Shown in pieces: positions 1,061 through 64,000 of a DNA stretch of 64,000 bases; position 1 is the first letter of the stretch, and every line of letters begins with the position of its first letter. The stretch is from Selaginella moellendorffii (Eukaryota > Plantae > Lycopodiophyta), in NCBI RefSeq assembly GCF_000143415.4, contig NW_003314336.1, positions 51,296 through 115,295 of the forward strand. Reading direction: 5' to 3'. The notes beneath the pieces are model-generated. The model was not told where the DNA came from. It saw nothing but the letters and a program-made list of their open reading frames with translations, and searched no databases. The position numbers were made by a program, and so were the translations under genes.

Positions 1061-1339
1061 ACTTGGTATCGGAGTTATTCTTTAATCTAACTCTTATTAG
1101 TGGTCAAGTATATTGTGAGACACAAAATCCCTAGGCCCCAAAGTGAAGCCAGAAGGGTGCCACGTGGTAGTGGCCGAACCGAAAGCCAAACGAGCGTAAC
1201 GCGTTTGGACTAAAAGCTCCGACTTGAAAGGTCAAGAGTGCAAGTGGAATTCCCAACAAAGGGCTCGAGGAATGAGTATGAAGCAAGCAATAAGCGAGGC
1301 CCTAAAAAGGGACCCAAAAGGACCAACACATGACACGTG

Positions 1340-8430: not shown

Positions 8431-10117
8431 CTTGGGGTGTCGGTTATGGGATTGGACACGTGGAGCACTTGGACCAAGTGCAAAGGTTGAGTGGCGGGGA
8501 TGCCATTCTCGGGGCTAGTAAGCCCAAGTCCAAAATAGGACTTACGGAGGTTGTGAGTGAGACTCCTCCAAGTGGTTGGAGGTGCGGTTAAGTGACTAAA
8601 GTAAAATGGAAAAATTTAGTCGCTTACAATACCTTGAGGGTATGTTGATGGGTTCATGGGAACCCCTTGCCAAGGGAATGGCATAGTCTAAGCTAGAAGG
8701 CATGTGGTTGGAGTGTGGTGACCCAATAATAATGATGGAGGTGTGGAAGCACTAAGCAATGAGTTGTAGAACTTAACAACTATTGGGCAACTAAGCAAAA
8801 GGTGCAAGATAATTGGTTAAATGGGTAGAAGGTAGCTACCCAAGACTTCTTAATGGCATAATGAAGTTAGATATACCCTTATGGGGGATAAATTGTTTAT
8901 GTTGCGATATAGTGAGTCAATGTCAAAAAAGGAAATACTCATTGTCAAGGAAACCATCATTGGGACACCAAAACACTCTGGAACACCAGGAGGTGGTGTT
9001 TAGTGTCGCGAGGGCAATAAATAAAGCCCAAGGGATTAAGTCCCTAGCGAATGATGGATGGGAGATGCCATCCAAACGTCCAAGGTTGTGGAGACAGGAG
9101 GAATCTGCCTGCCCGATTTGGACAAAGTCAAAAATGGGATTCTGGCAAGGCTAGTGATGGGCATATGGATGCCCATAAGTAGCAATGGTAATCCCGGTGT
9201 GTGGGATTATAAAGTGAGCATGCCTAGATTGAGGAACCACTCCCTAAGCTATCAGGTAGGTTCATCCCTATGAATACTTGCTAAAGCATGGTAAAATGTG
9301 CAAAGCTATCCTCCTAGTTTGGAGGAGAATAACCAAAGGAAACATGTGGGGCCAAAAGGCAAGTAGTATTGGGATGGAACTGAGCCATAGAAATCGAAAG
9401 GCATAACCAATGGTGGTTATGTAAGTTGGGAGTGGAGAATCAAGAGAATGGTTGAGGAGGTTGTTACTAGCAACTACGGTGCCATGGAGAGTCGAAAATG
9501 TGGAATTATCCATGTTGAACCATATGGTGAGCAAGGAGCTTGCAAAGGAAAGGCCTTAGCAAGTTAAGGAACAAAGTTCCTTGAAAGTTCCCGAAGACAA
9601 TTCTAGGTAGATAAGTACCTATAAAGCCAAGTGTAAATGGTTCTTAGAGTGCGCGAAATTAGAGTGGTATAGCAGAAGCGTGGTCTTGAAGCTGGCCATG
9701 AGGCGAGGCTATCAAAATTGGGGAAGTAGTTCCCGAGTGTTCAAAGAGAGGGCTTTGAACAAAAGTCGATGGTTAAGGACTTTCACGCTTATGCATGAAC
9801 CATGTTACGGTGGCTGGATGACTTGTTAAGTGAGACTGGCAAGTCAGGGGGAACAAATACCTTAGTTGAAAGAGCCAACTTAAAAGGGGTGGCCTGTGGG
9901 GCCACGCATGGAGGAGTTCATGCATGATGACAGACTCGTCAAGTGAGAGGACTTAGCAATGCGAGGAATTAAGTTCCTAAGCTGTGATCTATAGCACGCT
10001 TTAAGTATATGTTGGTGCACTGGCGTGGGGAGTCATGCCAGGCATCTTGTGTGATGCCGTCCGTAGATGCATATACGGAGGTTATGTTTGAGTCTCAACC
10101 CTCTAGTGCGTGGGCTT

Positions 10118-12137: not shown

Positions 12138-15100
12138 CTAGTGCGTGGGCTTCAGTCCCAACTCACTAGGGCATGGTGATGGTTTGGAATATGAGGACAC
12201 TCATTTTTCGGTGGTCATGGACTATTAGTGAGGAGACTGGTTTGGGCACACCGCCAAGCGAGGGATGCCTTAGAGTCATGATGCATTGTTAGATTGCTTA
12301 ATGTGGCTCGGCATATCTAACTTGAAAACTTTGGTTAAAGTGGCATCAAGGATGTGGTGAATGAGATAGGAACACCTAGTCTTAGTGGCTATGGACCCTT
12401 GGCCGGATGGGCTGGCTTGGGTGCACCGCCAAGTGTGGGGGATGCCCCTGGCGTCATGGTCAACAATTTAAAGGTCTAGAAGATTTAGTACCTATTGGCA
12501 AACCTATTAAGATGCTAAGGTTAAATCACTAGGTGATTTTATGGCCAAAACAAGGATAAGGTCCTTGTGAGGTTAAGGGATAAAGTTTCAAGTTCAAAGT
12601 GTTGATTGGAACTATTGATGGTGGTGTGGCTTGGTCAAGGTGACCAAGTGAGAAGGACACCTAAGGGAAATGAGATATGTCAATGCGATGGCATAGTGAG
12701 TCCAAGGAAAGTAGTCTCTATAAGAGACCCATGGGAAGGTCACAAAGTTAGGCTGTGAATGAATTGTGGGAAAGACAATATGTTTCCAAGGATGGATTCC
12801 CAACTGCTCTGATTTGGCGAAAGTGGAAGCTCCAAGGAAGGGAGTGGTAAGGTAGCCAAATGATAGGGCCATGGATAGCTCTAACACAAAGTGTGATAAT
12901 TGGAACTTAATGCCTAAGGTAGCACAAAATAGAAGAGAGGATGATAGTGCCCTCAAGTAAAGAACTTCTTAGGATGGGGAAATGGAGTTGCACAATATGT
13001 GCAATGCAAGGTGTTAGAGACACCTAAGAAATTGACTTCAAGAGGTCAAAAAGTAAAAGTTCCAAAATGTAAACGTTCAATCAATGGAAACTGAGACTAC
13101 TCGAAAAGGAGTAGTGGGATTGAGATAGAGGAGGTGCCTCTAACATGTTTAGCGAGAACTAAACTAATAAACGGAGAAAACCACCATAAATGGTCAAATA
13201 AGTCTCTAAGTTGGAGAGACTATGCTCCTTAGAGGATGGACAAGGTGTGGTGAGCCTTGGGTTTTAAACCATAGACAAACTTTGGCTGGGTGCCAAGGAT
13301 GGAAATGGTAATACATGCGGGTGTTACTTTATAAAACGGGTTTACCGTTCGATGAGGACATCGAACTTCGTTTATGGGTGGTGGAGTTGTGAGACACAAA
13401 ATCCCTAGGCCCCAAAGTGAAGCCGGAAGGGCACCACGTGGTAGTGGCCGAATCGAAAGCCAAATGAGCATAACGTGTTTGGACTAAAAGCTCCGACTTG
13501 AAAGGTTGAGAGTGAGAGTGGAATTCCCAACAAAGGGTTCGAGGAATAAGCACGAAGCAAACAATAAGCGAGGCTCTAAAAAGGGACCCAAAAGGACCAA
13601 TATATGACATATAAAGGAGTCTGAGATGGAGTCCGAGAGGGACCTGAGATGGAATCTGAGATGGAGTCCGAGATGGACTGAGACGGAGTCCGAGATGGAC
13701 CGAGACGGAGTCCGAGATGGACCGAGATGGAGTCCAAGATGGAGTCCGAGACAGAGTCTGAGATGGACCAAGACGGAGTCCGAGATGGACCGAGACGGAG
13801 TCCGAGATGGACCCGAGATGAAGTCCGAGATGGACCCGAGATGGAGTCCGAGATGGAGTCTGAGATGGACCGAGATGGAGTCCGAGATGGAGTCCGAGAT
13901 GGACCCGAGATGGAATCCGAGATGGAGTCCCCGAGATGGAGTCCGAGGTCGAGACCGAGACTGGGACCGAGACTGAGACCGAGACCGGGACCCAGACGGA
14001 GACCGAGACGGAGACTGAGATCGGGACCGAGACCGAGACCCAGGCCGAGGCCGAGGCCAAGCCCGAGCTGAGTCCAAGTCCGAGTCCGAGTCCGAGTCCG
14101 AGTCCGAGTCTGAGTCTGAGTCCAAGTCCGAGTCCGAGTCCGAGTCCGAGTCCGAGTCCGAGTTTAAGTTTGAGAGGGTGAAAGCCCAAACCATTCGTCT
14201 CCCAGACCCTAGGGGGTTTGGTGAGCTCCAAAAGTATAGTAGAGGGAAGACTGCAGTGGAGCCAGTTTGGCCAAGAAAGGCCAGTTTGGCCTAGGAAGGC
14301 TATACCCAGTGTTAGGTGATGAGTTGCCCACTGGGAAGTTCAAGATTAGAGTGAACACAAACTAACAAGCGGGGTAGCTTGGTAAAGTGTTCAAGAGTCT
14401 ACTCTAGTTCCCCCGGGAGATCGACTGGTTGATGCTCCCAGTCCAAGTGTGTCACTACCTACTTGGATACTTGGTGTGGCTCAACGGAACCTCGCTCTAA
14501 GCCTATGGCTAAAGCACCCAAAGGCAAAAGGCAGGGAGAGTACCCACGAGGCTCGCGTAAGGCCACGGTGTTCCGAAATGTTGCCCCAAAGTCCCAGACT
14601 GTGAAAAGGAAGAGGAGTCATCCTCTAGTGTAGAGACCAAGGATACGGTCATGTGAGGAGGAAGTCCTAAAGGACCGAGGGACTTAGTGGTCGGGCTTGT
14701 GGGCGTTGATCCAGTGGCAGTGTTGATGAACACGACCATGGACAAAAAGGGACTTGGTGGGAACTGGAAAAGGGATATTAGGGAAGGCTAATCCTCATGT
14801 CTGTGAGCATCCTAAGGATGTTAAGGAGTGGATCTGGGATGATCACTCATGGATGGATGGCCCAGTCTTTGAGAGAGGGACTGTGATGCAGGTGGTGTTA
14901 GACCACTGGTGTGACCAAGGTGAAGGGGCATGGCCTTAGTGTAACAGGCTGATATGTCAATGGTACCTTGGGGTGTTGGTCATAGGATCGGACATGTGGA
15001 GCACTTGGACCAAGTGCAAAGGTTGAGTGGTAGGGATGCCATTCTAGGGGCTAGCAAGCCCAAGTCCGAAATAGGACTTATGGAGGTTGTGAGTGAGACT

Positions 15101-15626
15101 CCTCTAAGTGGTTGGAGGTGTGGTTAAGTGACTAAAGTAAAATGGAAAAATTAATCGCTTACATATATCATCTGTTGTATTAGCATTGGAAAGTCCCAAA
15201 AGTGGGCCTATTTTTAAGGAGTAGCATGTTGAAAGGGCATTACTCTCCACCTTAGTTCATACATGAACATGTTAGCAATGCGGTGGATAGAAAGAGGCTA
15301 ATAAAAGAACAACTTTAGGATTTTGGGAATAGTAGAAGGTTTTCCTCAGAGAGTTGAGGATGTAATCCATATAAACATTTGACTTAACAAACTGGCTAAT
15401 ATGGTTGAGGTAAACAATTACTGTTGGGATTAAAGAAAAGATAGAGACTTTGAGACAATAAAGGAGTCACAGAATTATCCTCATATGGTTGAGGATGACA
15501 CTTATATATTTGAGACTAGAGTTAATGATTGTGAGAAGTCAAATATGGATAAAGACACATGTAGGTGTGATGCCTTGAGGTCAAGTTGGTTGGTTCATGA
15601 GAACCCCTTTCCAAAAGAATCCCAAT

Positions 15627-15650
15627 ATGCTCTATTTCGTTAAAGTGGGA
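15627..15650 (+). repeat. Left TIR
   Basis: Inverse of 28839-28862 with one mismatch; the same core is at 60684. Confidence 0.9.
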
Positions 15651-16287
15651 TTTATTCAGTAAAATGGGACTAGGTACAAATTTTCAAGTATTTGAAAATG
15701 ACGTGAAATTATATGTTTTTTGTCCCGGGGCTAGACATATCTGGGGCATGGTGACTAGCGCGGTGACCTTATGTCCAGACTGAGTCCATCTAGTTGTATA
15801 ATAAATCTCATTGTCAAGGTGAACAAGCCGAATCTGAAGCTAAAGAAGAGCGATGGCATGCACGCACACACTATTTGTTTGTTCATTGAGCGTGTGGTGA
15901 GCTTTCCAAGATGAACATCATTCCTATTAGCCAGACATATAACTTAATGGTGAGAACATTTAGATATTATTCAATGTTATCTTTTTCTAACGAATCTAAT
16001 TGTGAAGGTGTAGCAAGAGGCATTGCTAGTCTGGAGAAGTCATTTAACTCATTTGACCCTTAGTGTATTTTCATGAAACTAAATAACATTCATATTATTA
16101 AGGAATTTCTTTAGTACCTTTTTTTTACGACATAGAGGCTTGCATTTCTTTCAAAGGTGATTTAGTAAAAGGCCTGAGGGCACATGCCATTCTATTTCTC
16201 AGACCGGTATTAAGATATACTAGTGTAAAGGGAAAAAAGGTATTTGGTGATCAAGTAAATGGCATGAGGGCACACGCCATTATAAGC

Positions 16288-16545
16288 CTAAGCGCTAGTG
16301 GACACCTCCTTTTTGGTACTCTCAGCGGTACTATCATCCTTCTCCGGGTCAGTTGTTTTGCTTTGGATTGTTGTCTCTGACGTTACTGGGGCGTTCTCGA
16401 TAGTTGTTAATGTTGCCGTTTGTTCAGAAAAATGATCACCTGGAGTATAGTACGGGGAGTTTGGAAGACTTATATATTCTACATCTTCACCTATCTCCTT
16501 CTCCGTCTCCTTTTCTGCCTCACTTACAGATTTTGTGCTTGCCAT
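16288..16545 (-). CDS. Small acidic, Ser/Thr/Glu-rich ORF (85 aa from its ATG), function unknown
   Basis: MASTKSVSEAEKETEKEIGEDVEYISLPNSPYY...; also open in copy 2 (ending at 61342). No recognisable domain. Confidence 0.35.
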   Translation of the reverse strand: MASTKSVSEAEKETEKEIGEDVEYISLPNSPYYTPGDHFSEQTATLTTIENAPVTSETTIQSKTTDPEKDDSTAESTKKEVSTSA

Positions 16546-17183
16546 GAGAACGCTCTTCACCCTAAAATATGGAGTTCGTTGTGTTATAAAAGGAAACCAA
16601 CACACACGCTGCAAGGGAATGATGGTACATAAAACACGTAAGCCCACAATATGGGTTTATGTGCCATTAATATGGGCCATACGCCATATTATTAGATTTA
16701 TGCACGTGTGATTGGTAAATGCATATGTCACATCATCTTTGTTTTACCTCACACACTATATCAGGCCTAATGAACCATATCACATGTGCGCACATGCTAT
16801 ATATATGGAGAAGTATTATGCAAGGATAGAAATTCAATGCATGATTGTGGAGAGCAATGGCATGAAGCCACATGCTAAATAACATTTTTGAGAAAGAATT
16901 AAAATAAAAACATGCAAACAGTACTGAGTGGACCAAGACTTAGAAGTGCACAATTGAATGAGGTATTTCTAATAAATACTTCACTCACCTCATATAGGAA
17001 TGGCTACCACTCTCAAATGGCGTATCGCCTCATGCCATCACCTCGCAATTTGTTATAACAATCCGATGAATTCATATTCGACTTGTTCACCTTGAACTTT
17101 AAGTAAGATTTGCTAGAACAACTAAGAATTTATACTTGTTATTTGTATCATCTCACCTAGGAATGGCGTAAGGCCACATGCCA

Positions 17184-20100
17184 TCACGCCTCCTCTGATT
17201 CAGATTCGGATTGTTCACCTTGAAATAAAATACATTAGAAACTTAGTAAAGGAATATTAATGAATCTCACCTTGAACCCGGGTTATGAATGCTCTTGCTG
17301 CATCTCTTGCATGGTCTGGCAAGGTGATGGTGGCACTCTACTTCCGCATCCAACCATGCACAACATTATCCACCGATATGCTCATGCTGGGATCCCTTGG
17401 ATTCAGCACCCATCTCTTTTCTAGGCAATCGTTCGTATATCCGGAACTTGGCTTGAACCACTCCACAGTTACATTGAAGGAGTTAGTTTCCGCGTCCTCC
17501 TCTGCATCAGTGATGCAGCGCCCCACCCATATCATTTGTTTTTTATTACTGGGTCTGACAAGCACGACCATTCCTTTGCAGACCTGTACTGGATTGAATG
17601 CTGAATCCGGCTTCTTGTTCCTCGGCCCACAATAGTGATCCTCAACATCGTTATCTGTCACTGCATTTCCAGAGGACATTGTTCCGCTACTATCTGGTGC
17701 TCTGGGTTCTGGCCAAAAGGACTCTTCCAATTCTTCATATACAACCGGCCCATTTTGGATAGCAGATATAATCTTCTCCTAGTATTCGAGCAAAGGCTTG
17801 CACCTCTGAAAATAGGATTCTCCACCAAACACCAACCCCCTCTTCCAGAAGGCAATATGCTATCTAATCCCGGCCACTATACTTTCCTGGTCTTTGAGTC
17901 CATCCGGGTGTATCGGCCGTGGGGAACCCTGAGGAATCATAGGTTCCCCAGTTATGGGATCTCTCTTGAAGAGTTCAATGCCGTCCACTGGCAGCCACAC
18001 TGTGTCCCATTCTCTCATCTTGTACCTCATCACTGGAGCACCGTCACACATGCTGAAATGAAACTGAAGAGGCTTGGAGTGGCCAATCAGTGTTTCGGAT
18101 CCGTCCCTGATGTAGCCTCTTACAAACCCCTTAAAGTCTGGAACCTCTGTCAGAAGTGCAGCTTCAACAGTGCCTTTGATGCAATTTTGGAATTCATCGT
18201 AGAGTTGTGGGAGGGTGAGGACATTGGATCGCCGGAGGGACTCTGCCAGGTGACTGAACATGGCATCGACGTCTTCATGAGTGTGCCCAACCATGAGAAA
18301 GCCAAGTGTAACCGTTTCAAATATGCCTTTGGCAACAAGCATCGCCAAGTACGCGAAGACGTACATGTTTTTGTTCTCACTGCCAGCATTGTCTGTTTGG
18401 AGCAGAAGATGGGGTGGAAGGCCACATCGGCCACAAGAACTTCCTTGAGATTCTGCTTCGTTTGGATGAGGCTGTGCATTCACCGGGCGACCAGCCTCGT
18501 CGGAATGGCATGAGGCCTCACGTGATAACCCTACAATCTGACGGCCAACATATTCACTGGGATGGCATGGGGCCCCACGCGATACTGCAAGCCTTTGCTC
18601 CTCCTCCAGCTGAACCCTGTATGGGGTTCGATCGACAAGGGCCTTATGCAAGGGTTGGCCGTTCAGCTCAGTCTGCGCACTTTGTAGAGACCTTAAGTGT
18701 TTTGCTAGGGACGCAATCATCATGTTTGCACCCCCGCCACCCCATAGAGGTACAAAGAAGTTCCCATAGTTCTAGGCACCATGCCCATGAGCGATTATGC
18801 CAAACAGAGACACAGGCAGCTGCATGGATGAAGAGATTGCCTTGGGGGCAGGATTGAGTCGAGGTAAGCACGTCTTTTTCTGGTCCATTTTGTCGTGGAT
18901 GATGCAGAGGTAAGAGTCAAGTCTCTCCATGGAGAGAATCCTGTTATGATAATATGTAGTCCTGCAGCTTCTCTGCTCGATGTTGTGGTCGAGCCGCCTT
19001 CTAACCAACGTCTCTCGCTCTTGAGCGCTGCAAGAATTCTTCGACGAAGCCATTTTGATAGCAGTGCACTCGTCACACTTTGAAAAGCTGGAGTACTTTC
19101 CTATACTCACATCCCTGAACCTGTTGCTCCACAATCTACTAAATCTAGATTGGCTCAGCTTCCTGTAGCCATTACTCTGGAGTTCCCGATTCACATCTTC
19201 CAATATGGCCCCCTTGGTATACATGGAAGGGAGAACTCGTTGGGTGTCTCGTGTTCCATCTTCCAAGAGGCGGGTTTTATGTGGTTGCTGCTCGCTACAT
19301 GTCTCGACAAACTTCTTGAAGATTGCCTCTCCATATACAACATGACCCCTGGTTTTGTGCGTACCGTCATTTCCATGGACTGCCTGTTGAACCCTTTGTT
19401 CCTCGAACTCAGTTTTGATTCTGTAGAATGTGGTTCGAGGGACTCCATAAATGATTCTCCATGCCTTCATGCAGACCAAACCCCTCTGGAAGACCATGCC
19501 CCCCACCTGATGTTCTGAAGCATCAACAGATGACCGTAATGCCTCATACACAAAATTGCGAGCTGCCTTCCAGGACAATGTCTTGTATCTTGCTTTCTCC
19601 TCTTCAATAGCATCCCAATCAGCATGTTGACAGCACCTCCTCTTGCAACAAGCAACTGTCGAGACCATTCGAACCTCCATCACCATTTTCTGCCTTTTCG
19701 GTTCGTTGCTTAGATCCCTTTGGCTGCGCTTTAGGAAGGTGTACTTTCTTTTCCCATGAAGAGATGTTCTGTCATCAGTTGTAGTGGTGTTTGATTGTGA
19801 ATCCTTCACATTCTCAAACACTAAGTGCCTCAATTTCCACCGCACAATGCTTCCAATAGTCAGACTGTTTTCTTTTGTGTCAACAACCTCTAAAATCGCA
19901 ACTCCAATATCATCCCAGCCCAATTCTTGATTAGCAACCGCATCTCTTGGATTGACAATTGTGGCTAAGCCCTCAGCTACCACCTCCCCCTCGGGGTTGT
20001 TTAGAAACACTTTTGCCTGAATCCATGTAGCACGGTTCTTAAGATCCACGGAGGGAACATGCGTCGCACTTGCGCTGTCCCCAACATCTGCTTTCTTCTG

Positions 20101-20344
20101 AAGATTTTTCAAGCCAACAACAACATTTACCCCGACGACCATCTCTCCTCGTTCAATAGCGACCACATTCCCATCGAAGACAGTCTCTACTGATACAGAA
20201 GCATTGCCTTCCCCAAGCCTTTGACAGTGTATAACAAAGTTCCGATCCATAGACACAAGAGTCCCTTTTGCAACTCTCTTCCCACCATTCAAAATGTAAA
20301 CCTTTTCCCCAACCCTGATCCCACCATTCAAAATGTAAACCTTT
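17184..20344 (-). pseudogene. Sola-like DDD transposase (5' end lost in the assembly gap) with 4 in-frame TAG stops
   Basis: One reading frame with KCDEC, LCIIHDKMDQ, LLLQTDNAGSENKN and FLMVGHTHEDVDAMFS. Stops at 18772-18774, 17860-17862, 17779-17781 and 17338-17340. Probable last intron 17219-17270 and stop at 17184-17186. Confidence 0.85.
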
Positions 20345-20444
20345 NNNNNNNNNNNNNNNNNNNNNNNNNNNNNNNNNNNNNNNNNNNNNNNNNNNNNNNN
20401 NNNNNNNNNNNNNNNNNNNNNNNNNNNNNNNNNNNNNNNNNNNN
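20345..20444. other. Assembly gap (100 N)
   Basis: Run of N, preceded by a 39-bp tandem duplication (starts 20281 and 20320). Confidence 1.
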
Positions 20445-20458
20445 TAGTGGTACCACTA

Positions 20459-20650
20459 ATGGGATGAGGCCTCACACTATCTTTGGCCCCTGCTAGCCTG
20501 TTGCTATGTTCCTTTTGCCTTACTGCAACTGTATATATTTTTGTGTGCGTGACTAGTCACCCATACAAAAATATATACAGTTGCAGCAAGGCAAAAGGAA
20601 TATGGCAATAGGCTAGCAGGGGCCAAAGATGGCATGAGGCCTCATGCCAT
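20459..20650. repeat. 192-bp spacerless inverted repeat (hairpin) capped by two copies of the 22-bp motif
   Basis: Centre GTGACT|AGTCAC at 20549-20560; 96-bp arms with about 10 mismatches. Confidence 0.9.
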
Positions 20651-21341
20651 CTTGATATACACACAGCTGCAGGCAAGTAAAAACATACATGACAATACGC
20701 TAGCCATGAAATTGCAAGGGCCCAAGATGGCATGTGGCCTCATGCCATTTCTAAATGTGGTCCTAAGCCATTCCATGGTGAACATACCAGGAAGCACAAG
20801 TGCCGAATATCAAGAGGAAGTGGTAGCCACACCAAAGACAGTGCCGCTCGCAACACCGCAACTACTCGTAGCGCCGCTCGCAACACCGCAACTGCTCGTA
20901 GCGCCGCTCGCACAAACTGCCACTCGCATAAACTGCCGCTCACAATGGCGCTCGCAATGCCGCAACCGCTCGTAGACGCATAAACCACAGCCCACAACGC
21001 CGCTTACACAAGCAGCGCTCACTGCGCTCAGCGGAACCAAGAACACGGCGCACAAAAATGATAGACCTAGGAATGAGTTCGAGAATTCAAAAATAACACA
21101 CGCTTGAACGTCACATCAAATCCTCTGACAAACCAGATCTTATGATTCCTCTGACAAATTTCAAACTGAGTAGCTTCTAGACTTTGCTGTCGGAGGTTGA
21201 ACTTTGTCACATCATGTCCTTGCCTCGATCCAGCTTTGCCATGTCAGTGATTCGAACTTTGCCATGCCATGTCAGCGATCCGCGCCAAGATTATTCGCCG
21301 TGTAAAGGAATAATTATGCTGTGTGTGTACGTCCATTTATG

Positions 21342-22740
21342 GCAATATAAGGCCACACGCCATTCAAAGAATAATGCTCGACATAAGGCCACACGCCATT
21401 CAAAGAATAATGCTAGTCGAGCATTTTTTGGTGCATTTTTGGGTTCAAAATTGCATGAGCCCACACGCTATAAAGTTTACCTGTACCAAAAATAGAAACA
21501 GCTTTATTTACTTGGGAATTTAAGTGGTTGAGGCATTTTTAAACTTACAAACACATGCCCTACTTACATTCCTTTGGTTGCCTAAAATTCAAAAATATTA
21601 TAAACCTTTCTTTTTGCATTTTCAATGTTTTCAATTATGGTTTTTGATTTTCGTAGGACCAGCCTAGTAATCTATTTGCATCCCGTCATGTTTATAGCTA
21701 GCTTTCGTTTGTCCCCTTCGCTAGCCTGAGATACATCTGCTCGGCATCTGCCTCTTACAGCATTTGCCCAGAAAGGGCATCTTTCTTCACGCAGCATTTG
21801 CCACATGTTTAGGGTTTAGGGTTTAGGGTTTAGGGTTTAGCAATTCAGTAGCTTGATAAACATGCAAATACAGAACTTGATGCAAAATCCTTTGATATGT
21901 CACAATGCCCCTAGGACCATAAACACATTTCAATAGAGAGGGTCCTTTCATTTCATAACTCCTTACGTAGATCTTGGTGAAACCAGAGTTAGTGAAGTTA
22001 GTTTCTTGTGATCCCGCATCTGATTGTGATGTCCCTTTGCAGTTTCGATGGAAAGGTCAATGCACACCAAACTGTAAAATCTTGGAGCAAAATAACGGTC
22101 GGATCTATGGCAAATGCCCCTGAAAGATTGTAAGGCTCGTGTGGTCTCATGTGGTGTCCGATCGAGATGCTTCTTTGCAGAGTCATCAAGAAAGACATTG
22201 TATACCATTCTGTAAAATCTAGTTGCGATCTAACGGTTGGATCTCCAGAAAACTCAAAAAAATCTCGTGCGTGTCAGAATATCCTAGGAATATACTCCTA
22301 TGTGCCCCTGAAAATGGCATGCGGCCCCACGCCATTCAAGAGATAATGCCAGATGACGCCGAGAATTTTTTGGTGCATTTCTTGGGTTCAAAATTGCATG
22401 AGCCCACACGCTATAAAGTTTATCTTTGCCAAATAGAGAAAAGTTTATCTGTGTCATGTGAGGTAGTTACAGTCCTTTGTGCTCGGCATCTGCCTCTTGC
22501 AGCATTTGCACTGAAAGGGAATTTTTCTCCATTCAGCATTTGGCCCTGAAAATGGCATGCGCCCACACGCCATTGAAGGAATAACGCCACATGACGCCTG
22601 GATTTTTGGGTTTAAAATGTTTGGGGTTTTTTGGGTTTTTTCAAAATATTTTGGGTCCAACGTTTTTTGGGTTTCTTTGGTTCAAAATTGCATGAGCCCA
22701 CACGCTATAATATTGATTTGAGAGAAAAATAGAAACAGAT
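21342..22740. repeat. Three related modules, each carrying palindrome copies, in the divergent intergenic region
   Basis: CACGCCATT...TTTT...GGTTCAAAATTGCATGAGCCCACACGCTATAA at about 21390-21475, 22325-22418 and 22565-22710. Confidence 0.8.
21808..21840 (+). repeat. Interstitial plant telomeric repeat (TTTAGGG)x4.7
   Basis: TTTAGGG four times followed by TTTAG. Confidence 0.95.
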
Positions 22741-23437
22741 AGAATTTCTTTATTTAGCTGAACATCTGCCATTTTTGGAAATACTAGATGCTTTGGAATA
22801 TCCAATCATGCATGGTATAAATATAGCGAGGGTATTAAATGATATCCCAATCATGATCTTTCTTTTGGATTTCGCGTGCATGCAGTCCGAGGAATGATGA
22901 CGTTGCGGATTTCTTTTGGATTTTGCGTGCTTGCATGCGCGCGGCAATCCAGAAATTAATGGTGGCGCCCAAGTCCGAGGAATGATGACGTGGCGGGATT
23001 ACCAACCGTTGTGACATTTCGCGCGTGTGAGGTTAGGTTTTGCATTTTGCTTTGTACTCGCGCTCGCACACTCGCACTCGCGCTCGCATCACACTCGCTC
23101 TCCCGCTCGCATCGCGCTCCCACTCGCGATCACGCTCACTTCTCTACAGGTTTCTCGTGTGCATCGGCGTCCACTCGCGCTTGCATCACACTCGCGCTCG
23201 CATCACGCTCGTGTGCATCGGCGTCCACTTCAAGACACACCCAGTTTGTAACTTCGCCGCCAACTCCGCCGCCCACTCCGCCACCCACACGCAGCCCACT
23301 TGGCGTCCCGGGAGATTTCAGCGCCACTCTCCAACTGTAAGTGGCAGAGTAGCCTTGCTGCTACGATCCGCTGCACACACAGTGCACATTCGCCAGCGAG
23401 TCCAGCCTCGATTGTCACGGCCTCCATTCGGCTTCAA

Positions 23438-26400
23438 ATGGTAAGTCTTTTAGGCCAAGTAGAAAATGGCATGAGGCCACATGCCATTCAGTAGCAACAT
23501 TGGCATGCACCGATTGGGCTCTCGAGTGCAGTCCGGTTATAGATGGCGTGTAGCCTCACGCCATCTTAGGATGCAGCCTCAAGACATCTGATGCAGTGGT
23601 GAATGGCGTGTGGCCTCACGTTATTTCCAGCTGCTAGCTTTTCATCTGTCAGCTCTAATTGTTGTGCATTTCTGAACAGGCGAGGAATTGCGTTCTTCTT
23701 CCAGCCACTGTCAATGTGGATGCAGAGAAGGGGGAGGAGCTCACCAATTGGACTTTCGGGATGGAAGGCGAGGATCTGATGCTGTACAACACAGATGGTG
23801 GGAGAAAAGAATGCATGGGGATCCTCATCCAAGTGACAGACACTCCATGCAGTTCCATGCAAGAATATGGACTGGCACTTGTGGTAGAGACAGCGTCCGC
23901 CTTCAAGATCCACCTTGCACATCCTAGCGGCTTCCCGGAGGGGGGCAGCGGCTATGAGGAATTCCTAGAGGGAGCTAGGGAGAGGTTGTCCAGGAGGCCC
24001 ACAATTTCAAAGACGTTGCGGGTCTATGAAGATCACATGGAATCCACGGACCTCACCTACGGCGATGTTCAAAAACTATATTCCAACATTGAGCCGTTGA
24101 GAGTGCCTCCAGTTTGCGAAGCGAAGGGGAAGGGGGTCGATCTGGAAACTACCCCGAAGCAGAAAAGGGTGGTCAAGCTCAAGCCGACGTCCGACTCTGC
24201 TGCTCCAAAAAAGAAGCTACTCGGTGATGCCATTGCCTCGGGTTCGAACACTACACCCACCAAAAAGAAGAGCCGCAAAGAGCAGAAAGAGCAAGAAGAG
24301 GCAGCAAAAATTGTCGCAGATAATAGTACTTGTTACTATTCCAACAAAGTATATACAATCGACGTGAGCCGTATCGAGATCCAAAGCAAATACAACCACA
24401 GGCTAGTATCTGATGAGTGGGTGGAAAAACTGAAGCAGAAGATGCTGGCAAGTCCAGTAACACCCGACATCGCAGACGTGATCCCCTACTACCGAACAAT
24501 GAAGGGCGAGACGAGGTTTCCAGACTTGATCAATAGGAAGGTGTTGGACGATCAGAACATCCGGTTCTATGCCGTCTCCGGGCAGCATTCTAGCTTGGCG
24601 ATGCAATAGATAGTTGTGGATATTATGGTGGGCGAGGAGGTGAAGAAAGTCTTCAAGACAAGAGTTGTCCGCCTGATAAAAGGCAACTCGCCCCTCCGAT
24701 CTATCATATACATCTCCCACGCGCAGAATGTCAAGCAAGAAACGTGCTACAAATCGGGTCTGCACGAGACATTGGCACGAACACGGAAGCTCTGGGTTCA
24801 ACTGAAGAAGCCACAAAAACCAGGACAAGGACGTGCACTAGCAACTAGCGCCTGGCAGGTAAGCCTCGTTGCATGTGGCCTCACGCCATTTCCATTGCAG
24901 GAATTCTCGAGTCTTCTCTCGAAAACACTGGGGGTCAATGACACACTCAGCATCCATAACATTCTACTCGCGACAAAAGTTGTTTTTGACAAATGGGTAG
25001 ATGTGCTAAGGAGGTACCATGACGGGGAGTTGCTAAACTCAATGGGTGTGGAGGACGGCCGGAAGCCCAATGATTTGAAGCTCAACGCCTTGCGTTTCTC
25101 GCGGTCTCTAGACGACGACGACCTTCTGACAGTGGCTAATGCTCTTCTACATGGTGAGGTAGTCTTCAACAAGACCAAAATGACTCCCGGCCATATTGTG
25201 ACATACGAGGACTTGTGCACGACTCTGAGAGCTCGTGCGCTATTGAAGGATTGGATCTTCGAGCAAGTGGCCATGGCGAGGGTGAGCATCGACACCACGC
25301 AAGAGATGATGGAAGAGCTGGACTTGTCAAATGAAGACATCGACGAGTACGTGAAGGGTGCCCCCAAGTTCATCGATCTGCTGCGGGATGCCACGAAAAG
25401 TAAAGCTGAGAAGTTGGATCAGTATCCAAATTTCATTAAGAGGGATGTCGACCGCCGGCTTCAGAAACAGCTCAACCCCGCAGCAGAGGCCTATCGAGAA
25501 CCTTACCGGGTATACGTGAATTCGGATGAGGATCAAAGGTGGAGGAGCATCGTTTCCCGCGGAGATGAGCAGGTCAAGAACATCTTTTGTGTGATGGACT
25601 TCACAAACGAGGAGATCACTCATGCAGACGAAGTCAGCTCCATCATTGACTTAATGGTGGGACTTGCGGAGGTGGAATCTTCAATCCACTATATGATCTA
25701 CGACTCCGAATCCTATCACAAGTTCTGGAAGGCCTTGAACGAGGTGAAGGCTCGGTTGAAAGGCAAGGAGATGCGGGAGATCCATGGGATAATGGCTAAG
25801 AAGAAGATACCGACGAATGTCCGCATCTTCACAGTCGCCCTTGTTATTGGTCCTGCAGCAGAGTGGGACTGGAGTGACTTCCCAGCTTCGTTCAACAAAG
25901 CAGATCGAATTGATCTGAGGGAGGTCAATTTACCAGTGCCTGAGGAACTGAAGACGGCTATGGAGCTTTCGAATCCAAAGAAAGCTCCAGGTGCAGCATG
26001 GGAAATTGATTCGAAAAGGAAGAAGGGCAACGAAAAGATGATAGGTAATGCCTCGCGGTTATGGCGTGTGTGCTCATGCCATTCATTGCAGATCAAGGGC
26101 TAAGTGAAAGCAGCTAGTCACCACCTCCTGACTCAGATTCCTATGGCGGACTCCCCTTCCCCAATCTCAATGGAGAGGTACAATGGATGAGGGATGCTTT
26201 TCAAGTTAGGGCCATGTTTTTCTCATCTCGTCGTCTTCGAAGGGTGCAAGAACGTGCAGAAACCATGTTAAGACAGTCGGGTGAGGATACGGTCCTAGGT
26301 CACGCACTAAAACAGGCTATGGATGTCTTGTATTTTGAGATGGAGACTCGGCCAGATGATTTTTCCAAGATGGTCCTGGAAAAACAAGCAATCCAGCCTG

Positions 26401-28420
26401 AGCAGCCTATGGAAGAAATGCAAGAGGGGGATGAGGAGCCAGAGAAAGATAATGAGCAGGAAGAGCAGAAGAACGAAGAGGAGGACAAAGAAGAGGAGGA
26501 CGAAGAAGAGGAGGATGAAGAAGAGGAGGACGAAGAGGACTTGGATGGTCCTCACAATGGTGACGATCACAATAACGACGATGACGATGATGACGACGAT
26601 GGCCAGCCTGAGGTGGCCAAAGAGAAGCGGAGGAAGGTCATACAAGACAAACCATCAGGTAAATAATAGTACATCCATTCCTAACCTTTTACCATTTCTA
26701 ACATTGTCCATGTAGGTCGCAGAAGAAATGGTAAGTAGAGATTATTCAGTTGAATTAAGATACAAACTCTAGCCTTTAGTGTCGAGGAAGGATAGTGCCA
26801 AGCAAGGGTCGAAACGTATGTCCAATCCTTCAGAATCAGCAGTGCGCCCAAGTGATATCGGTCCTAGTTCCTCAATAGCAGTTGATGGTAAATACAGTAT
26901 AGTTGATTCAATGTGCTAATGAGTTTGTTTTTAGTAGCACGGGAGGATACCATCTCAATCGAAGGGAGATATTTGGACATGCATATGGATCCGCCAGTGG
27001 ACTCTACTTGCTTGCAAGAGTCATCAGAGCTGGTGGAGGCTACTATCCATATCAACGCCAAGCAAGCTGACCACGCTCCACTTGATGCTGCCCATACCAC
27101 TGAGTCAATCTTGTCCACGTATCCAACTGACGGTGACCAGGCGCCATTGGACCCGCATGAGGCCGCCCCAGCCGCCGAGCCGGTCGTATCCTCATTTCCA
27201 ACGTGTGCCCAATCGTCTGACTACGCGCCGTTGGAACCTCCCTACACCGCCCCTGCTGCCTGTTCGGTCATGTCCACTTTGCCAACGGAGGCACCAGCTG
27301 AAATGGCGTGTGATCACACGCCATCGGAACCACCCCATGCCACTGTTGAGCCAGTTGTACCAGAGTCTACAGCTGAAATGGCATGTGCCCACACGCCATC
27401 GGATGCGATTGACCCCACATTGCAGAGGAGAGTATTTCTGCCCTTCACGTTTCCTCGACCAAAACCCTCTAAACGACCATCGGGAGCACCATTCGCTAAT
27501 ATTGTAGATGGTAAAATTGACTTGTACCATTTTTTATGCTGACGCATTTCATTTCAGAGTCACGGCAAAAGTACTGTATCGTTTTTGATCTGAACGGTGT
27601 CCTTTTCTCCCATGAGCGTGGCTCGTCCTCGAATGTCACTGCACCCTCCAAAGCCTGCGGTCGCAAGTTGGTCAAAAGAGACAGATTCACATTAATCACA
27701 CGGGAGAAATTGCGGGATCTAATAATGACCATGCGACACTTAAAACAGAGGGCCGGGTTCAATTTGCAATTGGGAGTTTGGACATCCATGATGCGCCACA
27801 ATGCATTAACGTTGCTACAGATGATGCACAATCAGACGCGAGTAATATTACCATTTGACTTTCTCCTAACGCAGGAGGATTGCTTGACTATGGTCCATGT
27901 GAGGGGTAACAAGCCCATCTTCGTCAAGGCAGAGGCTGTAGTGATGAACCGGACTGCTAGGTCAAGTGAAATCCTCATCATCGATGACTCGCCGATTAAC
28001 ACTGCAGCGAACACGCACACATATGCAGTGCACCCCATCTCTTGCAGTATGGAAACTAGGGAGAAGAAACCGTATGTTCTGGGGGACCTTGCAAAACGGC
28101 TTGAAGCGATGGTGATAGAGAACCGGCCAGTCCAGGAGGTGGCTGCAGAAATCAACCAAATGGCAGATGGAACGGTATATCAGAAGCCATTTGATCAGAC
28201 AGACACCAGTCATCATTTATGGCATGTATATTGTCTAGCCAAGCACTATCCGCATCTCCATAATCTGCTCAACCGGATGGGTTCTTCGACCACTGAACAT
28301 GAGCGTGGACGTATTAGAGAAGAGATGGCATTACTATTGGGTTTAAATCCTGATAGTGTGGAGAGTGATGAAATTCCAAGATTATTATATAGGCGTTGGA
28401 GGCAAAAAATAACAGTCTGA
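23438..28420 (+). pseudogene. Transposon cargo gene, about 1480 aa: ParB/Srx-like region, helical and alpha/beta region, acidic tract, Pro-rich repeats, FCP1/NIF-type HAD phosphatase; 2 in-frame TAG stops
   Basis: ATG 23438-23440, then GT-AG introns at 23441-23679, 24859-24900, 26045-26091, 26659-26715, 26731-26779, 26888-26937 (or 26934) and 27511-27557. These join all the + ORFs in phase. Motifs: RLVSDEWVEKL...FYAVSGQHS and IVFDLNGVL, LGVWTS, LTQEDC, KPIFVK, LIIDDSP. Stops at 24607-24609 and 26115-26117. Confidence 0.75.
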
Positions 28421-28838
28421 GATGGCATGTATTTATTTAAAAATGTAACTTATTATGGCATGGGGTTCCATGCCATTGTATTAATATTAAAAGACAATTC
28501 TTTGAGAGGATTTGCATTATACTAGAAGTGTTACAGCATGTTATTGGAAGTCTACGAAGTTGTTTTATTAATAAGGGGAAAGTAAAGATTGAATGGGGAC
28601 TTGGGCTCCACCTAGACTCGGAGCAACTGAGCCAATATTAAAAGGATGGAAAGAAATTGGACGACGATGACAAGGAGAAGAGAGAGGTGAAGCAGTGGCA
28701 GGGGGAGGAGAAGTGATTGAGTAGACATTTCCTTGTTTAAAATAAAATGGCATGTGCCTCAATGCAGTTGAATTTTGTTATATTTATATACTATATAAAG
28801 GTTTGGAAACCTTATTTTACAAGTGGGATAATGACAAT

Positions 28839-28862
28839 TCCCACTTTAACGAAATAGAGCTT
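28839..28862 (-). repeat. Right TIR
   Basis: TCCCACTTTAACGAAATAGAGCTT. Confidence 0.9.
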
Positions 28863-30299
28863 CAATGGAAATGGGATGAGCATAACCTAAGCTAAAAGGC
28901 ATACAATTTGATTGTGTTAACCCAAATAGTGATAGAGGTGTGAAAGCACTAGCAATGAGTTGTAGGACTTGATAACTATGATAGAACTAAGCAAAAAGTG
29001 TGATATAATTGATTGGATTGGTGAAATTTAACTTCCCAAGACTTTTTGTTGAGATAAGGAGGTGCTATCTAACATCCCAGGTTGTGGAGACAGCAGAAGT
29101 CTATCTATCCAAATTGGACAAAGCTAAAAGGATTTTCGTAAGGCTAGTGATAGGCATACAAACGCCCATTAGTAGCAACATTAATCTCGATGTGTGGGAT
29201 TATAAAGTGAGCATATCCAAATTGAAAAACCACTCCTTAGGCTATTGGGTAGGTTCATCCTAAAGAATACTTACTAAGGTATAGTAAAAAGTGTAAAGTT
29301 ATCCTCCTAGCGTATAGGAGAATAACTAAAAGGAATGTATAAAGCCAAAAGTCAATAGTAAAGGGATAGAATTAAACTATAAGAATCAAAAGGCATAGCT
29401 AAGAGTGGTTATGCAAGTTAGAAGTGAAAAATCAAGTGAGTGCTTGAAGGTGTTATTATTGGCAATCGTGGTGCTATAGTGAGTCTAAAATATAGGCTTG
29501 CCCATATTAAACTATATGACAGTTAGGAAGCTAATAGAAAAAGTCTCTTTAATATTCCCAAGGACAATTCTGGGTAGGTTAGTACTTAGAAAGCCAAATG
29601 TAAATGGTTCATAATGATGTGCAAAACAAGTGGTGTATCAAAAGTGTCGTCTTGAAGCTTGTTATAAAGCAAGGCTATCAAGGTTGGGGAAATGGTTCAC
29701 TAATATTTAAGATTTTGGCTTTGAACAAAAGTCGATGGTTGAGGACTTTCATGCTTATATAAAGAACCATCTTATGTTGGTTGGGTGACTTACTGAGTTG
29801 GATTGGCAGGTCAGGGGAACAAAGACCCTAGTTAAAGGTGATGAGTTCAAAAGGGTGGCCCATGGGGCCAAACATGGAGGAGTCCATGCATGGTCATAGG
29901 TAGTTAACTAGCTTCTCAAGTAAGAGGATTTAGAAGTTTGGAGGAACAAGCTTTCTAAGTTGTGATCTGTAATGCGCATTGGATATAAGTTGTTGCACCA
30001 ACGTGGGGAGTCACACCAGGTATCCTTGGTTATACCATTTGTAAATGCATATGTAGAGGTTCGAGTCCTAACCCTTTAGTGCTTGGGTTAGAGTCCCAAC
30101 TCACTAGGGCATAGTGATGGTTTGGAATATGAGAACACTCAGTTTTTGGTGATTATGGACTCTTAGTAAAGAGGCTGGCTTTGGCACACCACCAAACGGG
30201 GGATGCCATGGAGTCATGATGCATGGTTAGATTGCTTAGTGTGAAAGTTTGGCATATCTAATTTGAATACTTTGGTGCAAGTGGCACTAAGAATATGGT

Positions 30300-60681: not shown

Positions 60682-63600
60682 AAGCTCTATTTCGTTAAAG
60701 TGGGATTTATTCAGTAAAATGGGACTAGGTACAAATTTTCAAGTATTTGAAAATGACGTGAAATTATATGTTTTTTGTCCAGGGGCTAGACATATCTGGG
60801 GCATGGTGACTAGCGCGGTGACTTTGTGTCCAGACTGAGTCCATCTGGTTGTATAATAAATCTCATTGTCAAGGTGAACAAGCCAAATCTGAAGCTAAAG
60901 AAGAGCGATGGCATGCGCGCACACACTATTTGTTTGTTCATTGAGCGTGTGGTGAGCTTTCCAAGATGAACGTCATTCTTATTAGCCAAACATATAACTT
61001 AATGGTGAGAACATTTAGATATTATTCAATGTTATCTTTTTCTAACGAATCTAATTGTGAAGGTGTAGCAAGAGGCATTGCTAGTCTGGAGAAGTCATTT
61101 AACTCATTTGACCCTTAGTGTATTTTCATGAAACTAAATAACATTCATATTATTAAGGAATTTCTCTAGTACCTTTTTTTTACGACATAGAGGCTTGCAT
61201 TTCTTTCAAAGGTGATTTAGTAAAAGGCCTGAGGGCACATGCCATTCTATTTCTCAGACCGGTATTAAGATATACTAGTGCAAAGGGAAAAAGGTATTTG
61301 GTGATCAAGTAAATGGCATGAGGGCACACGCCATTATAAGCCTAAGTGCTAGTGGACACCTTCTTTTTGGTACTCTCAGCGGTACTATCATCCTTCTCTG
61401 GGTCAGTTGTTTTGCTTTGGATTGTTGTCTCTGACGTTACTGGGGCGTTCTCGATAGTTGTTAATGTTGCCGTTTGTTCAGAAAAATGATCACCTGAAGT
61501 ATAGTACGGGGAGTTTGGAAGACTTATATATTCTACATCTTCACCTATCTCCTTCTCCGTCTCCTTTTCTGCCTCACTTACAGATTTTGTGCTTGCCATG
61601 AGAACACTCTTCACCCTAAAATATGGAGTTCGTTGTGTTATAAAAGGAAACCAACACACACGCTGCAAGGGAATGATGGTACATAAAGCACGTAAGCCCA
61701 CAATATGGGTTTATGTGCCATTAATATGGGCCACACGCCATATTATTAGATTTATCCACGTGTGATTGGTAAATGCATATGTCACATCATCTTTGTTTTA
61801 CCTCACACACTATATCAGGCCTAATGAACCATATCACATGTGCGCACATGCTATATATATGGAGAAGTATTATGCAAGGATAGAAAAATTCAATGCATGA
61901 TTGTGGAGAGCAATGGCATGAAGCCACATGCTAAATAACATTTTAGAGAAAGAATTAAAATAGAAACATGCAAACAGTACTGAGTGGACCAAGACTTAGA
62001 AGTGCATAATTGAATGAGGTATTTCTAATAAATATTTCACTCACCTCATATAGGAATGGCTACCACTCTCAAATGGCGTATCGCCTCATGCCATCACCTC
62101 GCAATTTGTTATAACAATCCAATGAATTCATATTCGGCTTGTTCACCTTGAACTTTAAGTAAGATTTGCTAGAACAACTAAGAATTTATACTTGTTATTT
62201 GTATCATCTCACCTAGGAATGGCGTAAGGCCACATGCCATCACGCCTCCTCTGATTCAGATTCAGATTGTTCACCTTGAAATAAAATACATTAGAAACTT
62301 AGTAAAGGAATATTAATGAATCTCACCTTGAACTTGGGTTATGAATGCTCTTGCTGCATCTCTTGCATGGTCTGGCAAGGTGATAGTGGCACTCTGCTTC
62401 CGCATCCAACCATGCACAACATTATCCACCGATATGCTTATGCTGGGATCCCTTGGATTCAGCACCCATCTCTTTTCTAGGCAATCCTTCATATATCCGG
62501 AACTTAGCTTGAACCACTCCACAGTTACATTGAAGGAGTTAGTTTCTGCGTCCTCCTCTGCATCAGTGATGCAGCGCCCCACCCATATCATTTGTTTTTT
62601 ATTACTGGGTCTGACAAGCACGACCATTCCTTTGCAGACCTGTACTGGATTGAATGTTGAATCCGGCTTCTTGTTCCTCGGCCCACAATAGTGATCCTCA
62701 ACATCGTTATCTGTCACTGCATTTCCAGAGGATATTGTTCCGCTACTATCTGGTGCTCTGGGTTCTGGCCAAAAGGACTCTTCCAATTCTTCATATACAA
62801 CCGGCCCATTTTGGATAGCAAATATAATCTTCTCCCAGTATTCTAGCAAAGGCTTGCACCTCTTAAAATAGGATTCTCCACCAAACACCAACCCCCTCTT
62901 CCAGAAGGCAATATGCTATCTAATCCCGGCCACTATACTTTCCTGGTCTTTGAGTCCATCCGGGTGCATCGGCCGTGGGGAACCCTGAGGAATCATAGGT
63001 TCCCTAGTTATGGGATCTCTCTTGAAGAGTTCAATGCCGTCCACTGGCAGCCACACTGTATCCCATTCTCTCATCTTGTACCTCATCACTGGAGCACCGT
63101 CACGCATGCTGAAATGAAACTGAAGAGGCTTGGAGTGGCCAATCAGCGTTTCGAATCCGTCCCTGATGTAGCCTCTTACAAACCCCTTAAAGTCTGGAAC
63201 CTATGTCACAAGTGCAGCTTCAATAGTGCCTTTGATGCAATTTTGGAATTCATTGTAGAGTTGTGGGAGGGTGAGGACATTGGATCGCCGGAGGGACTCT
63301 GCCAGGTGGACCCATAGAGGTACAAAGAAGTTCCCATAGTTCTGGGCACCATGCCCATGAGCGATTATGCCAAACAGAGACACAGGCAGCTGCATGGATG
63401 AAGAGATTGCCTTGGGGGCAGGATTGAGTCGAGGTAAGCACGTCTTTTTCTGGTCCATTTTGTCGTGGATGATGCAGAGGTAAGACTCAGGTCTCTCCAT
63501 GGAGAGAATCCTGTTATGATAATATGTAGTCCTATAGCTTCTCTGCTCGATGTTGTGGTCGAGTCGCCTTCTAACCAACGTCTCTCGCTCTTGAGTGCTG

Positions 63601-64000
63601 CAAGAATTCTTCGACAAAGCCATTTTGATAGCAGTGCACTCGTCACACTTTGAAAAGCTGGAGTACTTTCCTATACTCACATCCCTGAACCTGTTGCTCC
63701 ACAATCTACTAAATCTAGATTGGCACAGCTTCTTGTAGCCATTACTCTGGAGTTCCCGATTCACATCTTCCAATATGGCCCCCTTGGTATACATGGAAGG
63801 GAGAACTCGTTGGGTGTCTCGTGTTCCATCTTCCAAGAGGCAGGTTTTATGTGGTTGCTGCTCGCTACATGTCTTGACAAACCTCTTGAAGATTGCCTCT
63901 CCATATACAACATGACCCTTGGTTTTGTGCGTACCGTCGCTCCCATGGACTGCCTGTTGAACCTTTTGTTCCTCGAACTCAGTTTTGATTCTGTAGAATG
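60682..64000. mobile_element. Second copy of the Sola-like transposon (runs off the window), with an internal deletion
   Basis: Starts AAGCTCTATTTCGTTAAAGTGGGA and is near-identical and colinear with 15627-19430. Palindromes at 60908, 61224, 61313, 61913, 62073 and 62219. Confidence 0.95.
62240..64000 (-). pseudogene. Transposase copy 2, lacking the segment with the second and third catalytic Asp
   Basis: The junction at 63308-63311 joins copy-1 position 18252 to 18741 with a 2-nt filler (FFVPLW-V-HLAESL). Confidence 0.88.

Follow-up and report, generated by a model that had tools for sequence, protein, structure and literature searches.

The 64,000-nucleotide stretch of Selaginella moellendorffii DNA analysed here (contig NW_003314336.1; hereafter the window) contains a DNA transposon with two genes, one for a transposase and one for an accessory protein, and with an array of 22-bp palindromes that is confined to the element and avoids its coding DNA. 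The accessory gene is predicted to be spliced, and its product is predicted to combine a ParB-type fold with a pseudo-methyltransferase part and an FCP1-like phosphatase domain. By analogy with ParB-type proteins, we moderately favour the reading that the palindromes are family-specific loading sites for the element's own ParB-like accessory protein. The positions of all features are collected in Table 1.

A fixed palindrome mostly outside coding DNA

The original prediction described about 27 dispersed palindromes of 22 bp between 15853 and 28768 with an invariant 6-nt spacer, and both the array and its spacing were recovered. Within 15627-28862, the consensus ATGGCRTG-N6-CAYGCCAT has 11 exact matches, 23 matches with at most two mismatches, 26 with at most three and 28 with at most four, the first starting at 15853 and the last occupying 28747-28768. 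The 26 sites with at most three mismatches form the set used below; at the same threshold, 100 dinucleotide shuffles of the element gave a mean of 0.28 and a maximum of 2 palindromes. When spacers of 0-14 were scanned over the whole window at up to two mismatches, spacer 6 returned 30 sites and any other spacer at most one. Outside both copies of the element, about 47 kb of other window DNA holds a single site (10020, at most three mismatches). The motif does not resemble the terminal inverted repeats (TIRs) of the element, Tandem Repeats Finder reported no tandem array over the sites, and Rfam had no match for them.

All six spacer sequences quoted earlier are present, but the spacer is less free in sequence than had been supposed. 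Specifically, with both arms counted, the second/fifth position is G/C in 46 of 52 cases and the middle is S in 48 of 52, giving the refined motif ATGGCRTG-WGSSCW-CAYGCCAT, beyond which information content falls to background within two bases. At the CpG position of the 52 arms, CA occurs 29 times, CG 19 times and TG twice; with one site per flank group (42 arms), CA still stands at 25 against one TG. This is unlike passive decay of methylated cytosine, which is expected to give CA and TG equally. The two arms do not covary: 212 complementary pairs compare with 210.2 expected from column composition (p=0.37), none of the 11 pairs shows covariation, and the R/Y positions most often (12 of the 26 sites) hold A/C, which does not pair. 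It is thus the duplex sequence, rather than a hairpin, that looks selected.

Sites lie in non-coding DNA in 22 of 26 cases although 57% of the element is coding (p=1.7e-5), and within the accessory gene five of seven are intronic although introns account for 11% of the gene (p=2.3e-4); both p values rest on predicted introns and count site 20459, beside an assembly gap, as non-coding. The four coding sites fall in a variable insert of the transposase and in a low-complexity stretch of the accessory gene. Intron 1 and the stretch separating the two gene starts together hold eleven of the 26 sites, and five are within 1 kb of an end, in agreement with the earlier remark that they are not limited to subterminal regions. 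By 30-bp flank similarity, the 26 sites form 21 groups, with nine sites sharing flanks in four of them. Most sites are therefore not traceable to recent duplications, and the flanks are mostly unrelated, as originally described. Some duplicated sites have the same mismatches in their arms.

Two local observations concern the origin of individual sites. The mini-introns 24859-24900 and 26045-26091 are alike beyond the motif, on both donor and acceptor sides, which hints at a common origin. Beside the assembly gap, an inverted repeat at 20459-20650 has 96-bp arms without a spacer, 90% complementary, by which site 20629 is duplicated as 20459.

The accessory protein

Seven GT-AG introns of 239, 42, 47, 57, 49, 47 and 47 nt are predicted in the accessory gene, leaving 2 internal stops in the spliced frame against 90 in the unspliced one; both remaining stops are sense codons in other copies (24607 T>G, 26115 T>C). 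The location of the 42-nt intron is common to homologues, several of whose open reading frames (ORFs) end there. Across it, the Selaginella RefSeq model P0055 reads WQEF, and splicing it out raises the alignment score with all four homologues tested; in one sequencing run the intron is extended by 12 nt and has a better site. Two runs guessed to be RNA gave contigs that are unspliced through predicted intron 1 and no GT-AG joints among 15 listed (of 39); they are no evidence either way, so all introns remain predicted. To either side of 26006, runs X1 and X6 show loose ends, which points to an insertion at this place in other copies.

An exhaustive protein search with the accessory protein returned 17 matches at E<=0.001, or 15 once two chance matches to repeat proteins (P0034 and P0035, also excluded from alignments) were removed. 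Homologues with the same parts occur in the liverwort Riccia, the lycophyte Selaginella and the fern Adiantum. A word-index search gave no matches, and viral contigs held no relatives. A beta-rich-looking N-terminal domain at 23680-24150 is present in homologues and had no family match.

The ParB-like assignment comes from structure modelling. The model of 24310-24870 (predicted local distance difference test, pLDDT, 78.7) has a single Foldseek row at E<=0.001, Noc bound to its site (7ol9, E 8.7e-5), and VIA-align superposes it on Myxococcus ParB (7bnk) over 93 aa with Z 11.3 and a root-mean-square deviation (rmsd) of 1.9 A. ParB, Noc, PadC, KorB and pNOB8 ParB fill the first 14 VIA rows (Z 8.9-11.3), ahead of sulfiredoxin at 6.3-7.6. 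The modelled domain thus has the ParB/Srx fold found at the N-terminus of ParB, Noc and KorB. In a longer model of 577 aa (mean pLDDT 66.7), residues 13 to about 306-319 align along both domains of KorB, pNOB8 ParB, Caulobacter ParB and Noc; for residues 13-319, the alignment covers 198/208 aa of KorB (8qa9) at rmsd 5.6 and 206 aa of pNOB8 ParB (5k5a) at rmsd 4.7. Sequence searches of Pfam, PHROGs and the PDB did not detect ParB in the protein, and Atlas gave only leads scoring below 0.9 (DUF3723, DUF6551, ParB_N). Of these weak leads, DUF3723 is described as conserved Starship cargo of unknown function (PMC9156397).

Further along the protein, model residues 400-515 match S-adenosylmethionine (SAM)-dependent methyltransferases and Alba-like folds at middling level (Z 6-7.4) with low pLDDT. 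The Riccia homologue matches PF01555 (N6_N4_Mtase) below the cut-off (E 0.007), and its motif-I stretch aligns to 26217-26363. Beta-class N6/N4 methyltransferases carry a catalytic (D/N/S)PP(Y/F) motif and a SAM-binding FxGxG motif. Neither is kept here: the window copy reads DFTN and RQSGE and the homologues DVTH, DAAH and DATT, and Riccia retains DFFSGG alone. The region is therefore predicted to be a pseudo-methyltransferase. The FCP1/NIF-like domain of the last exon is also found in the Adiantum homologue and, weakly, in that of Riccia.

Related elements carry other palindromes

Of 188 related transposase loci, the best 80 served for comparison; they come from metagenome contigs, and most are short. 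In a de novo palindrome scan, 16 of the 80 exceeded the best of 2-5 shuffles by at least two sites, several of these being plain tandem or simple repeats. Upstream of its transposase, locus L004 carries TTTGGCCATATGGCCAAA ten times (the best of 5 shuffles reached 3), at intervals of about 140 bp like decayed tandem units, while GCTCAAAC-N4-GTTTGAGC is common to L001, L002, L003 and L006 with 2, 2, 5 and 1 sites. The window element has neither, and its own motif occurs in related loci only as single chance matches, in 9 of 80. Palindrome sharing roughly follows the transposase tree, which comprises 19 rows; 61 of the 80 loci were omitted for short cover, and six AT-rich decayed loci are long-branched and uncertainly placed. 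Since close relatives carry different palindromes of their own, sequence comparison indicates that family-specific palindromes are a trait of the group.

Other DUF7869 loci show other repeat types. The AT-rich decayed loci L013 (3581-7900) and L074 (2008-2720) have a GGTGGCCACC palindrome (4 sites) and 46-bp tandem units. GC-rich elements (L044 46-11193, L062 599-9279, L065 3384-9627, L080 62-9462 and L055/L057/L064/L071) each have their own 9-mer, spread over the element including its coding DNA and mostly non-palindromic: ACCAAAGAC x13, ACCCTGAAC x10, ACGCCTGGA x7, CTGGAGTCC x15 and ACCTTGGAC x5-6. They also share a conserved upstream ORF and an ORF that by eye resembles a C5 cytosine methyltransferase, with no Pfam match. 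The upstream ORF of L044, L062, L065 and L080 had itself looked ParB-like by eye and was rejected, with hhalign probabilities of 0.3% and 0.04% and no PDB match.

Weighing the alternatives

Several results weigh against the proposed pairing of ParB-like protein and palindromes. On the protein side, the 577-aa model has no Foldseek match at E<=0.001, and its DNA-binding region aligns only loosely (rmsd 4.7-5.7 A). The CTP-binding motif of ParB is GxxRxxA (PMC11229316); DpdB and SspE have DGQQR as the corresponding motif (PMC10164549). In all 12 aligned rows, the arginine of this motif is replaced, giving GQHSxxA or GQHTxxA, so that a standard CTP clamp is doubtful and, judged by this sequence motif, the protein is not a ParB CTPase. 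The surrounding P, G, Q, H, R and N are invariant in the 12 rows. An invariant asparagine (N140) stands at about the place of the ENxQRE-type motif EN(I/L)QRE, the remainder of which is not kept. On the side of linkage, a ParB-like gene was detected in none of the 80 related loci, the close ones holding at most 1.9 kb of upstream DNA whereas the domain here lies 4 kb upstream, so that the connection between ParB gene and palindromes rests on one element.

The signs of selection have counterweights as well. An ancestral A could partly account for the asymmetry between CA and TG. In a comparison of substitution rates of the kind suggested earlier, no arm base differs between copies 1 and 2 (0/112) against 30/1559 (1.9%) in non-coding DNA, an underpowered test (p=0.11) by which conservation of the arms between copies is not significant. 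Likewise, none of 40 listed differences (of 110) from other runs falls within a site, at p about 0.15.

The strongest alternative, which we regard as unlikely yet worth serious weight, is that the N-terminal domains of the transposase bind the palindromes, as an internal transposition enhancer or for self-activation, with the ParB-like protein having another role. The transposase N-terminus has cysteine-rich and helix-turn-helix (HTH)-like parts, two KOW-like parts and a weak PF03017 match. Palindromes lie upstream of the related transposases L001-L006, and the distant compact loci L046 and L017 have palindromic repeats with no accessory gene detected, which lends the transposase reading some support. 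Transposases can, moreover, themselves be sequence-specific activators: by itself, the AtMu1 transposase can switch on cognate copies, and TnpA recognises clustered motifs (10.64898/2026.08.24.746577). On the other side, the sites are not subterminal and do not resemble the TIR; 64 of the 80 related loci, most of them short, have no clear palindrome array; and a ParB-type module in the same element would be left unexplained.

It is improbable that the sites merely descend from an old short repeat unit that local duplication scattered, as a passive relic with no function today. The four groups with shared flanks, the mismatches common to the arms of duplicated sites, the decayed tandem-like spacing in L004 and the non-significant arm conservation would fit such a history. 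It is opposed by the 21 flank groups, by information at background within two bases of the 22-mer, by sites in 42-47-nt introns and variable protein loops, and by the strand-asymmetric CpG tolerance. The original prediction had preferred a selected site to a passive repeat, and fixed spacing, non-coding bias, lack of covariation, one-sided CpG tolerance and 21 flank groups uphold that preference; the origin of all sites by recent duplication with shared flanks, which would have spoken against it, was not what the flanks revealed.

Less probable still is a host transcription factor or chromatin protein whose sites were collected by the element as an enhancer. Sites do cluster near both gene starts, and the arms hold cores (CACG, CATG) that we take to be G-box/RY-like. 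A host factor would nevertheless be at odds with the single site in the roughly 47 kb of window DNA outside the element copies and with the unrelated palindromes of related families, which point instead to a binder that is encoded by the element and diverges along with its motif. Compared with such a binder, a host nuclear protein is the less likely partner. Finally, hairpins or cruciforms in DNA or RNA, as splicing, small-RNA or recombination signals, are very unlikely, since the perfect inverted arms and the several sites in predicted introns are set against absent covariation, a fixed 6-bp spacer with fixed letters, many intergenic sites and no Rfam match.

The transposon and its surroundings

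The flanks of the element rejoin at an empty-site relative at 43474-43740, as found by self-comparison. Its transposase matches PF25273 (DUF7869) at E 3.5e-40, and an alignment of homologues shows conserved aspartates in HDKMD, QxDN and GHTHEDxD. DUF7869 is presumably the Sola1 transposase family. From sequence, the element is Sola1-like with a putative DDD transposase. The Sola1 target site is AWWT, 4 bp, with insect TIRs tabulated in PMC3845634, and Sola1 is on record from Physcomitrella (PMC9033089). Compared by eye with the insect TIR of PMC3845634 Table 1, the TIR here is alike in about 17 of 24 columns (TATTT...AAAGTGG). The target-site duplication (TSD) of copy 1, the one complete insertion, reads best as CAAT/CAAT and not cleanly as AWWT.

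The family is high-copy in a DNA sequencing run. Against other copies, 50 of 93 listed differences of copy 1 are A/T for G/C and all three transposase stops are TAG, from which the window copy looks methylated and decaying. Copy 2, whose left junction reads AAAT and then GAAGCTC, lacks the region of palindromes 18505 and 18562. The six left-arm sites said to be kept in this copy are indeed there at up to two mismatches, while a threshold of three raises the number to seven.

Near the left end, a small acidic ORF at 16288-16545 (-), open in both copies (61342-61710 in copy 2) and with no Pfam match, may be a third gene or an exon. Between the two genes, 20556-23437 contains a short tract of plant-type telomere repeats together with simple repeats rich in CG, and in one run telomere-like letters stand at a deletion joint, 23813-23900. 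The transposon is inserted into a repeat family with GGAGTCCGAGAT-type tandem arrays, present as many decayed copies in 1-15600 and 28870-49100. Elsewhere in the window lie a Ty3/gypsy gag-pol at 51765-56200 (-), with stops and an assembly gap, and a long interspersed nuclear element (LINE)-type endonuclease ORF at 58139-59740 (+).

Table 1 Features of the transposon in the window
Feature	Position	Strand	Remarks
DNA transposon, copy 1	15627..28862		13.2 kb including one 100-N assembly gap; within a long terminal repeat (LTR)-retrotransposon-like repeat
Left TIR	15627..15650	+	24 bp, 23/24 matching right TIR
Right TIR	28839..28862	-
Likely 4-bp TSD, CAAT	15623..15626	+	second copy 28863-28866; register uncertain by one base
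Transposase, DUF7869	17338..20343	-	1002-codon frame, three premature TAG stops; 5' end lost in assembly gap
Accessory gene	23438..28420	+	predicted 8 exons, 1484 codons; two premature stops
Predicted ParB/Srx-fold nucleotide-binding domain	24346..24741	+	motif SGQHSxxA; structure model
Predicted helical region matching ParB/Noc/KorB DNA-binding domain	24757..25227	+	structure model
Degenerate N6/N4 methyltransferase-like region	25507..26363	+	catalytic motifs not kept
FCP1/NIF-like haloacid dehalogenase (HAD) phosphatase domain (DLNGVL)	27572..28018	+	last exon; Pfam PF03031, E 5.1e-6, above cut-off
7 palindromes	15853..17184		downstream of transposase: 15853, 16169, 16259, 16779, 16857, 17017, 17163
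2 palindromes	18505..18583		starts 18505, 18562; length-variable insert in transposase catalytic domain (alignment columns ~760-880 vary among homologues)
8 palindromes	20459..22708		between two divergent genes: 20459, 20629, 20727, 21450, 22314, 22393, 22552, 22687
3 palindromes	23441..23679	+	23466, 23543, 23603; inside predicted intron 1, 239 nt
Palindrome 24868	24859..24900	+	inside predicted 42-nt intron
Palindrome 26061	26045..26091	+	inside predicted 47-nt intron; removal restores frame
2 palindromes	27303..27399		low-complexity coding stretch of accessory gene
2 palindromes	28455..28768		downstream of accessory gene
Copy 2	60682..64000	+	98% identical, cut by window end; 7 palindromes 60908-62240

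Comparison with known systems

ParB, Noc and KorB act at dispersed palindromic sites, and KorB represses at long range. Like these systems (PDB 7bnk, 6t1f, 7ol9, 8qa9), the element combines a predicted nucleotide-binding fold, after which comes a putative helical DNA-binding domain, with many palindromes across the DNA that encodes the protein. Unlike them, it is a eukaryotic transposon with GQHSxxA instead of GxxRxxA, no clear ENxQRE, a longer site and extra domains, and no ParA-like gene was seen in the element. ParB-HTH adenine methyltransferase fusions are described from chlorophytes, chytrids and haptophytes, alongside phage ParB-Tls loci (PMC4738411). They resemble the accessory protein in joining a ParB-type part to an N6/N4 methyltransferase-like part, and the available part of that source does not report them as land-plant transposon cargo; the protein here differs in having lost the catalytic motifs and in its full ParB N-domain and FCP1-like domain.

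Among transposons, a close functional parallel is the VANC protein of Arabidopsis: it recognises a family-specific motif located in introns and between the genes of VANDAL elements, and it strips these of methylation (PMC5735166). Common to both are a transposon-encoded accessory gene and a short family-specific motif that is enriched in introns, intergenic and terminal non-coding DNA and differs between related families. VANDAL elements are Mutator-like, and their motif is a non-palindromic 9-mer accumulating in tandem repeats (PMC5735166), whereas the present element is Sola1-like with a 22-bp palindrome mostly without shared flanks. It thus has the family-specific non-coding motif but, in place of a Mutator transposase and a VANC protein, a DUF7869 transposase and a ParB-like model. 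Demethylation has been shown for VANC; here it is proposed by analogy, for a ParB-like protein with phosphatase and pseudo-methyltransferase parts. En/Spm TnpA is likewise an element-encoded sequence-specific regulator with family-specific clustered motifs (10.64898/2026.08.24.746577). Its sites are terminal and it derives from a transposase HTH. The present sites, by contrast, span the element, five of the 26 lying less than 1 kb from an end, and a ParB-type protein is the candidate binder. Sola1 elements of insects have a TIR similar by eye to the one here, and a DDD-type transposase and a TSD on the 4-bp scale are probably shared as well, but they measure 1.5-2.8 kb (PMC3845634) against 13 kb and a second, multi-exon gene here. 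The available part of 10.64898/2026.08.24.746577 does not mention Sola, ParB or palindromes, and a literature search confined to openly accessible papers came across no account of a palindrome array or a ParB-like gene in Sola or any plant transposon; DUF7869 is absent from the 40 listed results (of 64) of one query, and PMC5751038, PMC5753468 and 10.1101/2021.09.26.461848 contributed nothing further. A transposon-encoded factor with cognate motifs is already known, and the unexpected part, as modelled, would be the bacterial-type binder.

Proposed mechanism and implications

We moderately favour a model in which a dimer of the accessory protein would bind each 22-bp palindrome, much as ParB, Noc and KorB do on their dispersed palindromes, and would spread from there to flag the whole element. 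Its FCP1-like and methyltransferase-like parts may then provide an anti-silencing or self-regulatory output, by analogy with VANC and VANDAL, that would sustain expression of the element's genes in the face of host methylation. Short local duplications would generate new sites, which would persist where they carry no cost, namely in introns, intergenic DNA and variable loops, and motif and protein would diverge together between families.

A bolder and rather doubtful extension is that transposons of seed-free land plants carry a bacterial-style ParB-parS device, in which a nucleotide-gated clamp loads at family-specific palindromes and slides over the whole element, bringing with it phosphatase and methyl-reader parts by which host silencing is turned off, with related giant transposons of other eukaryotes doing likewise through other motifs.

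Site-loading clamps of the ParB type occur in bacteria, in plasmids and in archaea. A eukaryotic transposon that combined such a module with a parS-like array of its own would add to VANC and TnpA a second, independent way of countering silencing at specific sequences, and the motif-protein pairs of different families could serve as orthogonal tools for targeting. It would also offer a physical answer to the puzzle posed by VANC, namely how the reader of a short motif affects a whole multi-kilobase element.

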